Shown here: positions 2,224 through 8,440 of the stretch, piece by piece
Layout of the letters: every line of letters starts with the position of its first letter
How positions within the stretch are numbered: the first letter of the stretch is position 1
Assembly (NCBI GenBank): GCA_963710375.1
Contig: CAVPZX010000003.1
Location: 192,001 to 256,000 of the forward strand
DNA from: Nitrospirota bacterium
GTDB lineage: Bacteria > Nitrospirota > Thermodesulfovibrionia > Thermodesulfovibrionales > Dissulfurispiraceae
Direction: 5' to 3'
Length of the DNA: 64,000 bases
Notes under the pieces: generated by a model
Told to the model about the DNA's origin: nothing
The model's database searches: none
The model's input: the letters and a program-made list of their open reading frames with translations, nothing else
Position numbers and translations under genes: made by a program

Positions 2224-3501
2224 TCAGGAAAGTTCGGAGAGGAGCGTAATGAATGTCGTGAGATAGTCGGGATCAAAGTCGCCGGTTTCTTTTGTTTCTC
2301 TGGTCAGCAAAGTCAGTGCCATATAAGGAGTGTAAGCATACCGAAAGGGACGGGGGGTTATCAGACAATCATAACAGTCCACCATTGCGGCGATGCGGCC
2401 GAAAACCTTCACTTTTTCACCGTTGAGCCCAAAAGGATATCCTTTGCCGGACAACCGCTCATGATGTTGAAGGACCACGACTAGCGACTCTTTCTCCATC
2501 TCCTTAGCAGCTTCAAGTATTCTGAATCCCTCGATCACGTGAGTTTTCAGAAGTGAAAATTCTTCCTTGGTGAGTCTGCCCTGCTTATTTATCAAATCCT
2601 TCGGCAGTATGCTTTTCCCTATATCATGCATAAGTGCGCCTACTCCGAGCTTTTCGATTTTTCTCCTCTCGAATCCGAGTGCGGAACCGATGGCGATGCA
2701 TAAGACCGCAACATTCACTGAATGCGTATATGTATATAAATCATAAGTCTTAAGCGACATCATGTCATAAACACTGACCTGTTTCTTTAATATAGAATCG
2801 GTTATCTCAGCGACTGCTGTTCCGACCTCATCCATCTTGTCAATGACATGGGGGCTCGAAAGGACATCCCTCACCAGTATTTTCGAATTTTCTTTTAGTG
2901 AGATTGCCTTGCATTTCTGTCTCATTTCCTCGGGGATATCCGGCGATGAAAGGAGGTTGTTCAAATATTCCTTATATAAATTAATATCAGAGGTCCTGAT
3001 GGCGAGATCTCCTCTTGCCTTAAATACTCTATCGGGAATCTCTATCGGCTCTTCCACAGCGGCCTCGGCGAGTAATTCAATAAGCATATTATTGATCAGG
3101 TAAATATTGAAATTGATTTTTGTGTTTCTTATAAAGCTGCTCTTATCTATCAACAGAGTTTTATCAATGTTGTGATACATCTCTTTGTTGCGCGAGTAGA
3201 CGTAGAATTTTTCCGTATCCACTGCTTCATATTGCGGTCCGGATGAATTATCCAGGTACTCTTTAATATTTGACGGGGTGCCTTCTATATATACCGTGTT
3301 TATTCCCTTGATGTCCAAAGTCTCTTTTGTCCTCTGATCGAAAAGCGTCCATTTGGTGAAAAGATGGATAAAATTCCGGCCATCCTTCAGGTATACGTCA
3401 AAAGGGATACGTAAACCCAAAAGCAGCATGTTTGTGGGCAGCGGAACTTTTAACATCCGCGCATCCGTGGTAGTTGGGGTCTCTGTTGTTTTTTCGTCCA
3501 T
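2224..3501 (-). CDS. HD-GYP domain phosphodiesterase
   Basis: YTHSVNV, HDIGK, HHERLSGKGYP, PRPFR. Confidence 0.85.
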   Translation of the reverse strand: MDEKTTETPTTTDARMLKVPLPTNMLLLGLRIPFDVYLKDGRNFIHLFTKWTLFDQRTKETLDIKGINTVYIEGTPSNIKEYLDNSSGPQYEAVDTEKFYVYSRNKEMYHNIDKTLLIDKSSFIRNTKINFNIYLINNMLIELLAEAAVEEPIEIPDRVFKARGDLAIRTSDINLYKEYLNNLLSSPDIPEEMRQKCKAISLKENSKILVRDVLSSPHVIDKMDEVGTAVAEITDSILKKQVSVYDMMSLKTYDLYTYTHSVNVAVLCIAIGSALGFERRKIEKLGVGALMHDIGKSILPKDLINKQGRLTKEEFSLLKTHVIEGFRILEAAKEMEKESLVVVLQHHERLSGKGYPFGLNGEKVKVFGRIAAMVDCYDCLITPRPFRYAYTPYMALTLLTRETKETGDFDPDYLTTFITLLSELS

Positions 3502-4027: not shown

Positions 4028-5209
4028 TTAACGTTCCTTAAGCCGTTTATCGTAACTTTTATCGAGTTTCAGCCCCTCGATATCGGTTGTCTTCTCGCCT
4101 TTGGCGCCCTTGATCCTGTCGATGCCCCTGCCGACAACGGCTTTTTTAGACGCATAAGCCATGGCGGTTTCCTCAGTTATCAGCCCGTCCTGGTATAACT
4201 TGAGTATGGCTTTGTCAAAGGTTTGCATGCCATAGGCGTCGCCGGCCTCGATTAGCTCATAGAATGTCTTGCCCTCGGATTCGCCGGTAAATATCGATTC
4301 TTTCACTCTCAGATTTGTCCTCATGATTTCGATGGCCGCTATTCTGCCTCCTCCCACCTTGGGCAGCAATCGCTGGCTGACGACCCAACGTATTGTATCG
4401 GCAAGGCGGGTGCGTATCTGCTTCTCTTCATCCCTCTCGAACATGCCGACTATTCTGTTGATCGTCTGTCCGGCATCTATTGTATGCAGCGTAGAGAGGA
4501 CCAGGTGGCCTGTTTCAGCAGCGGAGAGAGCTATCTCAAAGGTTTCCCTGTCTCTCATTTCTCCGACAAGTATTACTTTGGGGGCCTGGCGGAGAGCTGC
4601 TCTCAACCCATTTGCGAAGGTATCAAAGTCTGTGCCCAGCTCTCTCTGGTTAAAGGTTGCCTTTTGGTGCTGATGGGAGAACTCGACGGGATCTTCCAGC
4701 GTTATGATATGAACGGTATTTGTCTCATTAAACAGCCGCAGGATAGCAGCAAGTGTCGTCGTTTTTCCGTTTCCGGTCGCTCCGGTAACCAGCACCAGCC
4801 CGTTTTTTTCTTGAGCTATTTCCGACAACACCTCAGGCACATTAAGTTCGGCAATGGTTGGAATGACTGTTGAGAGTCTCCTCAGCACTACGGAATACGA
4901 CCCGCGCTGTGAGAATATATTCACTCTGAACCGGGCTTTTTCCGGCAAGGCATAAGACAGGTCGCATGAACCCTGGCTTATGAGTATCTCGCTAAGGCGG
5001 CGGTCAGAGTTCACTAGGTTCAGCGCCAGGATTTCGGTCTGAAAAGGAGTCAGGTTGTCAAACTGCGCCACGCCGGTAAAAGCAACCGGCATCAACTGGC
5101 CCGAGGCCTCAACCTGCAACGGCTTTCCTACAGTGAGATTGAGGTCGGATACATCCGGCTGACTATCCAGCATCGTATTAAGGATATAATCGAGCTCTGC
5201 CCGTCGCAC
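4028..5209 (-). CDS. pilU: Type IV pilus retraction ATPase, PilT/PilU family
   Basis: GATGNGKTT, TLEDPVE, ALRQAPKVILVGEMRD, STLHT; GTG 5209 follows GGAGG. Confidence 0.85.
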   Translation of the reverse strand: MRRAELDYILNTMLDSQPDVSDLNLTVGKPLQVEASGQLMPVAFTGVAQFDNLTPFQTEILALNLVNSDRRLSEILISQGSCDLSYALPEKARFRVNIFSQRGSYSVVLRRLSTVIPTIAELNVPEVLSEIAQEKNGLVLVTGATGNGKTTTLAAILRLFNETNTVHIITLEDPVEFSHQHQKATFNQRELGTDFDTFANGLRAALRQAPKVILVGEMRDRETFEIALSAAETGHLVLSTLHTIDAGQTINRIVGMFERDEEKQIRTRLADTIRWVVSQRLLPKVGGGRIAAIEIMRTNLRVKESIFTGESEGKTFYELIEAGDAYGMQTFDKAILKLYQDGLITEETAMAYASKKAVVGRGIDRIKGAKGEKTTDIEGLKLDKSYDKRLKER

Positions 5210-5226
5210 AAAAACCTCCAAAAAAC

Positions 5227-5354: not shown

Positions 5355-6428
5355 TCAAAAATCCGGAGGCGGTTCTTTCAGGAACCCCACAAACTTCTGC
5401 TTGTCAATTGACTTGTCGTAAGCATCTTCAGGGCTTATCCATTTTTTGAGCAGTAGTTCCATTATGGCGTCGTCAAGCGTCTGCATGCCGTATTTCTTAC
5501 CGGTCTGCATGGCAGAGAGAAGCTGGTGGGTCTTGGACTCCCTTATGAGATTTGAAACCGCATAGGTTATAACCAGTATTTCCAGCGCTGCGCACCTGTC
5601 TTTCTTATCTATGCGCTTGAATAGGTTTTGCGCTATGACTCCCTTTAATGACTCAGAGAGCGTCGTGCGGATCTGTGCCTGATGACTAGAGGGAAAGACG
5701 TCCACAACCCTGTCCACGGTCTTTGGCGCACTCGTCGTATGCAGTGTGCCGAAAACCAGATGCCCTGTTGAAGCAGCCTCAAGGGCAAGCTGAATGGTTT
5801 CGAGGTCTCTCATTTCTCCGACAAGGATGATATCCGGGTCCTCGCGCAGCGCACCCCTGAGCGCAGACGCAAAAGATTTAGTATGGGTGCCGATTTCACG
5901 GTGGTTGACAACGCAGCCCTGGCTCTTGTGAACAAATTCAATGGGGTCCTCCACTGTAATTATATGGTCTTTCCTCATCTTGTTGGCGTAATCGATGATA
6001 GAGGCCAGAGTTGTGGATTTCCCGCTTCCAGTAGGGCCTGTAACAAGTACCAGTCCTTTCTGCAGCATAGCAAATTTCTTGCATACCGGCGGAAGACCGA
6101 GCTGCTCAAAGGTCAGTATGTCATTGGGAATCTCCCTGAAGACTGCTGCCACTCCGTATTTTTGCCGGAAAAAATTGGCACGGTAGCGTGCAAGCCCCGG
6201 TATTTCATAACCGAAGTCGATATCACCGGTCTCCTCAAATAATTTTACCTTTTCTTCCGGAGCAATCTCGTAGAGCATAGCCTTGAGGTCGTCGTTTTCC
6301 ATGATGTTATACTGCACCCTTTGCATTTCTCCCCTGATCCGGAGTATGGGCTGGGAGCCTGATACGAGGTGCAGGTCAGAGGCGCCCTGTTCATGCATAA
6401 GCTTGAAAAAAGCATCGATCTTTGCCAT
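5355..6428 (-). CDS. pilT: Twitching motility ATPase PilT
   Basis: GASDLHL, GPTGSGKSTT, ALREDPDIILVGEMRD, NLIRE, GMQTLD. Confidence 0.95.
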   Translation of the reverse strand: MAKIDAFFKLMHEQGASDLHLVSGSQPILRIRGEMQRVQYNIMENDDLKAMLYEIAPEEKVKLFEETGDIDFGYEIPGLARYRANFFRQKYGVAAVFREIPNDILTFEQLGLPPVCKKFAMLQKGLVLVTGPTGSGKSTTLASIIDYANKMRKDHIITVEDPIEFVHKSQGCVVNHREIGTHTKSFASALRGALREDPDIILVGEMRDLETIQLALEAASTGHLVFGTLHTTSAPKTVDRVVDVFPSSHQAQIRTTLSESLKGVIAQNLFKRIDKKDRCAALEILVITYAVSNLIRESKTHQLLSAMQTGKKYGMQTLDDAIMELLLKKWISPEDAYDKSIDKQKFVGFLKEPPPDF

Positions 6429-6555
6429 TGCGCAACTCCTGAGCGAAGATATTTGTCGCTTGGAAACTAATGGTTTATATCAGACTTTTAAGGTTTTGTC
6501 AAGAAAACAACATTTAACTTGAAAGTTGTCTGGTGGTGTGATAAATTGAAATTGA

Positions 6556-6640
6556 GAGTACCGAAAAAGCCAAACCCTTTGCGAAGAGGGGGCGGAAAGC
6601 GGCGGGTCTTTGAACTGGAGATGGCCGAGCTGCCGAATGA
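6556..6640 (+). ncRNA. c-di-GMP-I (GEMM) riboswitch aptamer
   Basis: AAAGCCAAACC-CTTT-GCGA-AGAG-GG-GGCGGAAAGC-GGC-GGGTCT...AGATGGCC-GAGCTGCCGAA matches the GEMM-I layout (GNRA-capped P2, AAAG junction, P3). Confidence 0.85.
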
Positions 6641-6671
6641 TCTAGAGTGGGCAGCTCGGTTTTGTTATTTT
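6625..6671 (+). terminator. Riboswitch expression-platform terminator
   Basis: ccgagctgcc (6625-6634) pairs perfectly with ggcagctcgg (6650-6659), followed by ttttgttatttt. Confidence 0.8.
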
Positions 6672-6708
6672 AGAAACGATTTTGGGCATAAGCAAGGGGA
6701 GGGACATT

Positions 6709-7402
6709 ATGAACTATAAGGCAGCCAGTGACATACAATACGAAGACAGAATCGGCAAGGCGGGAATTGCGGTCAAAGAAGGCATCATCAGCAGCCTGCA
6801 AGGTATTAACGAGATCGAGGCAGAGATCGTAAGCCTTGTACGGAATACCGTATCTAATACCCTGCGGGCCGGCGAGAAAGTGGCAGGAGAGAGTCTATCA
6901 ATTACAAAGGACGTTGTAAAAGGCGCCATAACCGCCACAGAGGAGGTCGGCACGGGTCTCATTTTGAGCACGAAGAGCGTGGCCAAAGGCATTGTGATGG
7001 GAGTGAGCGACATGGGCGGGGATATTGTGGCTGTTGCGAGCCAGACCGTCAAGGGAGCGGTCAAGGGAGCAGCTCGAGATCGGGGCAGATGTGGCTCTTG
7101 TCGCACGGAGGGCGGTTGACGGCGTTATCGAGGCGACTAAGGAAGTCGGAGGAAACGTCACGGAAGTTGCCAAGGCTGCTGTGGGTGGAGCGATCGAAGC
7201 GGCAGGCAGCATCGGGAACACAGCAGTAAAAGCGGTGACTGACATGCTGGTGGGGGTTGTTGAGGGCGTTAAGGAGATCGGAAGAGCAGCCTTTCCGAAG
7301 CCGCGACTGGTAAAAGGATCACACGAGGCAGATTCCTCTTTTACCGAAGGGGAATTCGCCGAACCTGCGATAAGGAGGACGAGTCATAAAAAGTCGAAAT
7401 GA
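6709..7402 (+). CDS. Hypothetical Gly/Ala/Val-rich 22-aa-repeat amphipathic protein (~230 aa; +1 frameshift at ~7075)
   Basis: GGGGAGG RBS; ORFs 6682..7119 and 7025..7402 join by removing one base, and the joined protein keeps an exact 22-residue period. Confidence 0.75.
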
Positions 7403-7506: not shown

Positions 7507-7717
7507 CTGCAATTCAGACAGTGTAAATGAAGGATATGTCTCTTACGCTCAGGCGCTACGTCCTGACAGTTCTAACGGCTTGTTCGCTACAGGCGCAAAA
7601 CTCGCCCTTCGGGCTCAAACATTGCGCCTGTTAGACGCTCACTTCGCCGAGAACTGTTACCAGGACTCCGCGATTCGCTTCAGAGACATATCCTTCATTA
7701 CACTGTCTGAATTGCAG
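7507..7717 (+). mobile_element. MITE-like palindromic element, family A copy 1
   Basis: ~36-bp terminal inverted repeats ctgcaattcagacagtgtaaatgaaggatatgtctct / agagacatatccttcattacactgtctgaattgcag; flanked by tgtccattc / tgtacattc (8 of 9 direct repeat). Confidence 0.8.
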
Positions 7718-7730
7718 TGTACATTCCCGG

Positions 7731-7898
7731 TAGTGGGCCAGTTTGCTTTTTGCTCTGTATCAATTAGCCGTTCAATTCAATCACTGGCCTGTATTGAGCA
7801 TTACCTGTGGTCGCCACTTCTATATATGTGGGCTCGGCGTTACTCGCCCACTATTGATAACCCAGGTGATACAGAGCAAAAAGCAAACTGGCCCACTA
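7731..7898. mobile_element. MITE-like element B with perfect 32-bp terminal inverted repeats
   Basis: tagtgggccagtttgctttttgctctgtatca (7731-7762) is the exact reverse complement of 7867-7898. Confidence 0.7.
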
Positions 7899-7995: not shown

Positions 7996-8440
7996 ATGAG
8001 AACCAGATTTGCCAGGAAAAGTGAAATTGAGCGCAAATGGTATGTTGTTGATGCAAAAGACAAGGTGTTGGGCAGGTTGGCCTGCAGGGTTGCATCGTAC
8101 ATACGGGGAAAGCATAAACCCATATTTACACCCAATGTGGATACCGGAGATTTTATCATAGTAATTAATGCTGATAAAGTTAAGGTCACCGGCAAGAAAC
8201 TTGTTGAACAAGCTGTATCAGCACCACACCGGCTATATCGGTAACCTGAAAGAAACTTCGCTTAGAGACAGGATGAGTTCAGAGCCTGAGAAGGTGATAG
8301 AAGATGCCGTATGGGGAATGCTTCCCAAAAACAGGCTCGGCAGGGCTATGATCAAAAAACTGAAAGTATACCGCGGTCCTGAGCACGGGCATGCAGCTCA
8401 GAAACCAGAGTTGATAGAAATCACAAAAGTAAGGAGTTAA
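7996..8440 (+). CDS. rplM: 50S ribosomal protein L13 (apparent +1 frameshift at ~8208, probable sequence error)
   Basis: RKWYVVDA...LGRLA...[14 protein letters not shown] in one frame; HHTGYIG...[10 protein letters not shown] in the next. Confidence 0.95.

Follow-up and report, generated by a model that had tools for sequence, protein, structure and literature searches.

A c-di-GMP riboswitch precedes an intact gene for a predicted helical solenoid, a possible extra subunit of a DUF5132/HMA_2/P2-ATPase module

The genes controlled by riboswitches of the c-di-GMP-I class concern the cell surface, motility or signalling, whereas in the 64,000-nt window, i.e. the whole stretch of DNA analysed here, an RNA of this class stands before the gene of an uncharacterised intracellular repeat protein. 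This raises the question of what the protein does and why its amount should follow c-di-GMP. Our answer, to which we give about even chances, is that the riboswitch-led gene is intact and encodes a predicted dimeric solenoid that may serve as a c-di-GMP-induced extra scaffold subunit of a module made of DUF5132, HMA_2 and P2-type ATPase proteins. The argument draws on the following features (positions in the window):

5355 to 6428, minus strand: gene of the pilT family, the divergent neighbour (TIGR01420 above cut-off)
6519 to 6547, plus strand: predicted promoter-like site of the sigma-70 type with an extended -10 (9 of 12 consensus matches, with TG)
6560 to 6638, plus strand: c-di-GMP-I (GEMM-I) aptamer (Rfam covariance-model matches)
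6624 to 6671, plus strand: intrinsic terminator, its 5' arm being the 3' strand of the aptamer including C92 (C6633)
6696 to 6703, plus strand: ribosome-binding site, read from the sequence (GAG core kept in 6 of 6 leaders)
6709 to 7402, plus strand: repeat-protein gene, 230 residues, with one surplus base at 7075
6748 to 7294, plus strand: eight 22-residue helical units, residues 14-195 (predicted solenoid, from models of orthologues)
7295 to 7399, plus strand: variable tail ending in a basic stretch (alignment A6)

The first-pass annotation had described the product as an unknown protein of exact 22-residue repeats. It does lie outside the characterised families: in profile searches no Pfam or NCBIfam family passes its cut-off, Pfam 'Senescence' (E 0.014-0.02) and ribosomal L18 (E 0.011) stay below it and were treated as compositional matches, and the ESM Atlas gives only unnamed clusters (0.93-0.97) plus DUF6781 at 0.76. 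The family comprises 1112 clusters of a 50% library at E ≤0.001 and 491 at 1e-10, and is present in 69 of the 301 genomes of the order. The five repeats quoted at first agree with the read-through translation, and their exactness holds for the spacing but not for the sequence, as the self-similarity at lag 22 (z 9.4 in 200 shuffles; lag 44, z 8.1; lag 11, z 4.0) corresponds to 26% identity. In the unit consensus over 61 cores, positions 5, 9 and 15 are large and apolar, 7 and 16 are Gly, 2 is Lys/Arg and 14 is Asp/Glu; position 16 is Gly in 83%, followed by Gly/Ala/Thr/Asn and then by Asp/Asn/Gly/Thr, i.e. there is a turn in every unit. The basic tail that had been noted is found at the C-terminal stretch; the tail is long in seven of the nine rows of alignment A6, shortened in the other two, and carries a short motif common to most switch-bearing copies. 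No hydrophobic N-terminus was seen (best 19-residue hydropathy window 1.27), in keeping with the earlier view that a signal peptide is lacking. Elsewhere in the family the repeat domain is fused to a MucR/Ros zinc-finger domain (P0006, P0007, P0008, P0010 and P0016, one source being Syntrophobacteraceae), and among 50 homologues scanned a GGDEF, a receiver, a GNAT and a cation-ATPase-N domain each occur fused once; these four cases may be assembly artefacts.

Structure prediction presents the protein as a fixed eight-helix solenoid that dimerises. The models were made from the intact orthologues L003 and L004 (84% and 80% identical to the window copy) and not from the window's own sequence. 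AlphaFold2 gives eight helices broken at the Gly-small-Asp/Asn stretch (unit positions 16-18), the last helix being uncertain, with a pTM of 0.70 with 26 rows and 0.78 with 78 rows, and the fold is compact with two predictors. Among solved structures, designed helical repeats come closest (DHR4, TM 0.72; 8cwy_A, Z 16.3, rmsd 3.4 over 182), and a sequence search of solved structures returned only designed proteins (best E 1.3e-4). DHR4 (PDB 5cwb) and 8cwy resemble the model (TM 0.72-0.78) in having helices of about 19 residues and short turns, but they are not homologues (14-19% identity), and the shared fold shows no function. No natural fold stands out in two structure searches (best natural chain rmsd 3.9 over 150); HEAT, ARM and TPR solenoids give no profile match, and natural solenoids reach only Z 8.4. 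The 50% library yielded 139 new matches, 74 of which align over at least 150 positions, partial matches being left uncounted, and 64 of these 74 distant homologues align without a net indel. When two copies are modelled, a symmetric dimer is predicted via core residues 1-78, i.e. the first four helices, with a score of 0.56 (best of three controls, 0.01); the runs agree in at least 98% of the contacts, and pLDDT is at least 83. The mark used for dimers is reached by 20 of 30 solved pairs and by 1 of 23 single chains; the prediction supports a putative dimer.

Structure predictors may, however, pack amphipathic repeats into solenoids by habit, and a coat on lipid surfaces had been named at first pass beside a helical solenoid. 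One form of this alternative is a perilipin-4-like coat that would be unfolded in the cytosol and would form 11/3 helices on a lipid monolayer or inclusion at high c-di-GMP. We consider it unlikely, but it stays a rival because the composition resembles that of perilipin 4: the core consists to 46% of Val/Ala/Gly with hardly any aromatic residues, and Plin4 shares the bias towards V, T and A and the many Gly (excerpts of PMC8064757). The hydrophobic moment peaks at 98.5 degrees (0.37; shuffled sequences, 0.14 ± 0.02), the charges are lopsided, with K/R on one flank and D/E toward the other, and lipid genes (HpnJ-like, acyltransferase-like) recur near some copies. However, a peak at 98 degrees is the sixth harmonic of any 22-residue repeat, and the 11/3 periodicity does not discriminate since any 22-residue helical repeat yields it. 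The Gly-led turn at position 16 of each unit, the compact fold from two predictors, the slightly acidic core (net charge -2) and the 67-88% identity of orthologues across phyla, which we judge high for a surface coat, speak against it as well. In helices of the perilipin-4 type the number of repeats is free to vary, whereas the unit number is fixed here, none of the 74 long matches differing by a whole unit. Class-A apolipoprotein and synuclein helices carry Lys/Arg on both flanks of the apolar face and Pro between their 22-mers; the window core has K/R on one flank only and no Pro. Plin4 itself, though alike in 11/3 periodicity, small hydrophobic residues, many Gly and few aromatics, is unfolded in solution and has about 1000 residues of 33-mers, whereas the window core has eight units with a turn each and is predicted to be a compact dimer (excerpts of PMC8064757). 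Thus, of the two earlier readings, the models leave the helical solenoid favoured over the lipid-coating helix, because a compact fold is predicted, the number of helices is fixed, a Gly and an N-cap turn occur in every 22 residues, and a dimer is predicted.

The role of the putative solenoid may be read from its relatives, most of which stand in an operon of the order DUF5132, HMA_2, repeat gene, HMA_2-fused P2-type ATPase and MetK-like gene. This context was found for 71 of 93 distinct cores (the window copy being excluded as broken) and for 52 of the 80 best-matching metagenome loci, 12 of the 80 being too short to tell (the matches surveyed are the best 80 of 192 and the best 80 of 90 confirmed). 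The source genome has an intact operon on contig C5 beside pst genes and a third, switch-less repeat copy on C2; the pump gene is split in its assembly, which is an error (4 of 4 runs). DUF5132 and HMA_2 were found in L022 and L011, and the first 400 residues of a relative's pump match P2 models best (TIGR01522, E 7e-49; P1B, 5e-20). At L022 (G000 C5:430000-442200) the operon is flanked on one side by pstSCAB-like genes and on the other by two acyltransferase-like genes, a pair that presumably resembles ornithine-lipid synthesis genes. These neighbours hint at phosphate-starvation control, and in a loose, uncontrolled search for Pho boxes in the region preceding the operon, repeats spaced by 11 bases came up next to pstS. 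L056, L089 and L159 each contain the repeat gene twice, on opposite strands and no more than 3 kb apart.

The parent operon resembles the gene sets of ferrosomes, of the calcyanin neighbourhood and of PacL without being a member of them. Like the ferrosome (fez) clusters (10.1101/2020.01.10.902569, in excerpt), it joins a P-type ATPase with a small GxxxG membrane protein, DUF5132, and the R-rich HMA_2/CoBaHMA; its pump, in the 400 residues scored, is of the P2 type and not P1B-6. The calcyanin neighbourhood of Microcystis (10.1101/2024.07.07.602159, in excerpt) has a similar set of P-type ATPase and GxxxG/HMA genes, and so have PacL/P-ATPase platforms, as far as their descriptions were covered. 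Compared with these three sets as given in the excerpts, the parent operon adds the repeat protein and the MetK-like enzyme, and the same excerpts contain no link to c-di-GMP.

Judged by sequence comparison, the switch-borne gene is a paralogue of the operon subunit, descended from the operon family. Identity with the operon copy is 39 of 47 positions in the predicted dimer interface and 106 of 135 elsewhere, so that the predicted interface appears not to be specially conserved; because 39 of its 47 residues are identical, mixed dimers of the two copies may be possible. The median dN/dS is 0.18 among the switch copies (28 pairs) and 0.04 among the operon copies of the genus (35 pairs), a difference of about four times, and such faster evolution of the switch copies fits a relaxed or changed function.

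Alternatively, a solenoid dimer might act as a c-di-GMP-switched tether between a membrane or mineral compartment and DNA or polyphosphate, binding the latter through its basic tail, just as PhaF tethers PHA granules, which we regard as quite improbable. The tail window has a net charge of at least +4 in 42 of the 74 distant homologues, as compared to 12 of 74 inside the core, and the five fusions to a MucR/Ros domain would suit such a role, as would an orphan ParA-type ATPase within a few kb in L053, L093, L152, L230 and L238, the pst-like genes flanking the operon in the source genome and the ppk-like genes flanking one solo copy. However, the tail is cut off in L002, L024, L151 and L234, all of which keep the switch, and the ParA homologue of the source genome lies on a different contig.

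The unit of switch and repeat gene recurs at no fewer than 16 distinct loci, i.e. the window, L002-L006, L024, L025, L053 and L234 (ten copies in nine genomes) plus six metagenome contigs, counted after removal of four duplicate metagenome contigs; with respect to the question raised at first pass, some homologues do share the riboswitch. The whole leader occurs in 6 of 68 genomes of the family and in 10 of the 80 best-matching metagenome loci, and leader and spacing are constant across the loci while the neighbouring genes vary. The pump is also present in eight of the nine switch-bearing genomes; it was not found with the query used in G223 (88% complete, 540 contigs). At L233 a switch copy lies at the far end of an operon island. 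The switch copies form a clade with moderate support (SH-aLRT 95 with seven rows; 86 when further rows are included, one member then being switch-less), and L053 has the leader and both group-type protein ends, but its core groups with the operon copies. The switch is decayed or lost in L093, L230 and L231. L093 (3806-3920, 6774-6960) contains one copy with a decayed switch and a second locus at which an internal deletion has fused the 5' part of the switch to the tail of the gene, before a ParA-type gene. What is new here, as far as sequences can tell, is a paralogue that left its operon and keeps a c-di-GMP switch at distinct loci. Nothing was found on the repeat protein or on the switch-gene pair in a literature survey that left most subscription journals and bioRxiv supplements uncovered, and supplementary riboswitch lists may name the loci.

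L099, from a Planctomycetota bin, is the one locus of the operon type, out of those scanned, in which a switch stands between HMA_2 and the repeat gene. This switch has G21-C46 and its own fully paired terminator. As it is 72-82% identical to switches of its own lineage and matches the window leader only marginally (E 0.03), this RNA has an origin of its own; in the tree of the proteins, a shared origin with L099 is not rejected (p-AU 0.52; the free search was poor). Four genomes of the lineage contain 28, 20, 35 and 2 c-di-GMP-I matches, and because the lineage is so rich in these switches a chance insertion is possible; none of five relatives holding the gene has a switch of the L099 type. 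L099 may thus be regarded as one suggestive case that hints at convergence. In G092, G316 and G318 (L250-L269), which account for the 28, 20 and 35 matches, several of the switches are in tandem and many have long insertions.

The RNA itself had been recognised as a GEMM-I aptamer with a G at the position equivalent to Vc2 G20, and covariance models bear this out. The stretch 6560-6638 on the plus strand is the single Rfam match across the whole window (clan CL00126) and exceeds the cut-off of two models, scoring highest with RF03167 (c-di-GMP-I-GGC; 66.8 bits, cut-off 59) and also matching RF01051 (c-di-GMP-I; 58.2 bits, cut-off 35), of which the source genome has two matches including this one. 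In Vc2 numbering the pocket bases are G20 (G6569), A47 (A6596) and C92 (C6633). The RNA is thus like RF01051/Vc2 (excerpts of PMC6140456) in covariance match, G20, A47, C92 and the G14-C93 pair, and differs in the 21-46 pair (6570/6595), which is C-G instead of the G-C of the RF01051 consensus. The two positions pair in each of the 8 orthologous leaders, always in the swapped C-G order. The C21-G46 form, with the same terminator layout, is common in the bacterial family ahead of many unrelated genes, one such switch preceding an MCP gene and another a gene that we take to be CheW-like. At L109-L132, C21-G46 switches precede CBS-domain, chemoreceptor and secreted-protein genes, and most of them score best with RF03167 yet retain A47. 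The window switch is an ordinary member of its riboswitch class. The second c-di-GMP-I switch of the genome (L023:4929-5019; G000 C3:153929-154019) has G20 and G21-C46 and precedes a multiheme cytochrome gene, the Geobacter counterparts of which follow cGAMP switches.

A47 is counted among the bases of the c-di-GMP pocket, and the RF03167 consensus has G at this position, to which the "GGC" of its name presumably refers; because the window RNA has A47 (A6596) and not G47, its top score with RF03167 does not make it that variant. In Vc2, G20 recognises the first guanine of the ligand and C92 pairs with the second, A20 is the mark of cGAMP switches, and the affinity of the wild type is in the pM range for c-di-GMP, as compared to 10 uM for cGAMP (excerpts of PMC6140456); the window RNA has G6569 where GEMM-Ib cGAMP switches have A20. 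The cGAMP synthase GacA carries Ser at the specificity position of its GGDEF domain, which defines Hypr GGDEF domains (excerpts of PMC6456294), whereas this position is Asp in 12 of 12 matches and Ser in none in the source genome (98.8% complete), which also has 14 HD_5 matches. The ligand is therefore likely to be c-di-GMP on the grounds of pocket bases and GGDEF survey, both of which argue against a true GGC variant or a cGAMP switch. That the switch senses 3',3'-cGAMP or another ligand is very unlikely: the best Rfam score does go to a variant model, the 21-46 pair is reversed in all orthologous leaders, and the second switch of the genome precedes a typical cGAMP target of Geobacter, but the swapped pair is the common local form, and G20, A47 and C92 constitute the c-di-GMP set.

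Since the 5' arm of the terminator is shared with the 3' strand of the aptamer, the leader is predicted to be a transcriptional ON-switch for c-di-GMP that is off by default. The strand ccgagctgcc, previously said to double as terminator arm, indeed does so: the stem comprises 11 bp (6624-6634 / 6650-6660) including C6633, with a loop of 15 nt and a hairpin energy of -22.0 kcal/mol, and is followed by nine T among the 11 bases 6661-6671. A consensus terminator scan did not report the hairpin because its loops were limited to ≤8 nt. Folding of 6556-6675 gives -42.2 kcal/mol with the terminator forced and -28.7 kcal/mol with the upper stems of the aptamer forced, ligand and tertiary terms being excluded from both values, and the 160-base leader as a whole folds in an unremarkable manner (z -1.04). 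Across eight orthologous leaders 94.3% of 88 cells of the terminator are paired, a value equalled by 9 of 500 shuffles, slid registers pair to 19-47%, and only two pairs are altered on both sides (2 cells), i.e. the conservation of the putative terminator is good and its covariation thin. The promoter scan gave five sites in the region where 1.7 are expected, and the -35 and TG(A)TA columns of the promoter-like site are conserved in 6 of 6 orthologous leaders. The ON-switch of G. metallireducens pilM has the same transcriptional layout, its terminator sequestering the ligand-pairing C, but senses cGAMP, whereas the window RNA has G20 and its genome lacks Hypr GGDEF domains (excerpts of PMC9262584). 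The c-di-GMP ON-switch proposed at first pass thus remains the predicted function, in view of covariance model, pocket bases, terminator overlap and conservation, and GGDEF survey.

The neighbours to which the gene had initially been related, pilT, HD-GYP and hpnJ, are real. A second pilT-family gene lies at 4028-5221 (TIGR01420 above cut-off), HD_5 (HD-GYP) proteins are encoded at 917-2197 and 2224-3501, and 3-770 codes for the N-terminal half of an HpnJ-like protein (TIGR03471, E 1.7e-112), which is under the whole-protein cut-off because the window edge cuts the gene. The link to pilT, however, did not hold and was rejected, as the adjacency is not conserved: pilT and rplM flank the unit in the window, L003, L004 and L145, i.e. 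in 4 of 16 switch-bearing loci, while the other 12 have no adjacent pilT (two with <310 bases upstream). DUF3562 is the downstream neighbour at 8 of the 16 loci, a ParA-type or MntP-like gene is sometimes nearby, and the switch faces away from pilT. It is thus highly improbable that the unit is part of a pilT/HD-GYP/hpnJ locus with an action on pili or hopanoid membranes. Between the gene and rplM there are two MITE-like elements (7507-7717 and 7731-7898) with perfect terminal inverted repeats of 20 and 32 nt, both multicopy genome-wide (51 BLAST pieces for the intergenic stretch).

In the assembly the gene suffers a +1 frameshift at codon 123. Four sequencing runs from two studies, which may include the source sample, were compared: the surplus base at 7075 is missing from the contigs of all three spanning runs, and the contigs of the fourth break there. 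The essential gene rplM (7996-8440), 1.1 kb away, looks split as well, and since the contigs of 4 of 4 runs are without the base at 8207 this is an assembly error of the same type. The first half has matches among relatives in 23 of 61 genomes; these extend to residues 122-124 and lie within open frames of 201-268 codons. dN/dS between the window copy and seven orthologues is 0.08-0.20, and dN is low past the break, too. Hence the frameshift at 7075 is an assembly error, the gene is intact and under purifying selection, and the read-through protein of the first-pass annotation stands. That the frameshift shown by the assembly is real and the gene dead has next to no probability, being refuted for the sampled populations by run contigs and dN/dS. 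With the gene alive and its product outside the characterised families, none of the tested objections foreseen at first pass arose.

Taken together, we propose the following course for the extra scaffold subunit. At low c-di-GMP the terminator would form and transcription would stop near 6665, whereas bound c-di-GMP would hold C6633 and the P1 strands, which would block the hairpin and allow the gene to be read. The protein is predicted to form a head-to-head pair by means of its first four helices and could do so with the operon copy as well, and we speculate that the extra copy feeds or re-tunes the pump module of the same genome. The switch would thus likely link the machinery of an ion-pump operon to c-di-GMP signalling. 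Least certain is the notion that the module builds or services a membrane platform handling cations or minerals, which the extra copy may enlarge or re-tune.

A more far-reaching version, which we hold to be rather doubtful, is that the DUF5132/HMA_2/P2-ATPase operon builds an undescribed compartment for cations or minerals, of which the repeat protein would be the coat or tether, its dose being set by c-di-GMP. Assembly of the compartment would then be tied to c-di-GMP, because Thermodesulfovibrionales and a Planctomycetota bin appear to have separately placed an ON-switch before the subunit. If this were true, assembly or positioning of an organelle would be coupled to the signal of the sessile lifestyle.

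The repeat family is large and unnamed, and its parent operon is similar to gene sets for the making of mineral-storing compartments. A predicted solenoid from nature that is most like designed proteins is also of structural interest, and with a leader of 160 bases and a protein of 230 residues the system is small and tractable. For the family, the riboswitch may be regarded as a first physiological cue, suggesting that the subunit is wanted when c-di-GMP is high.
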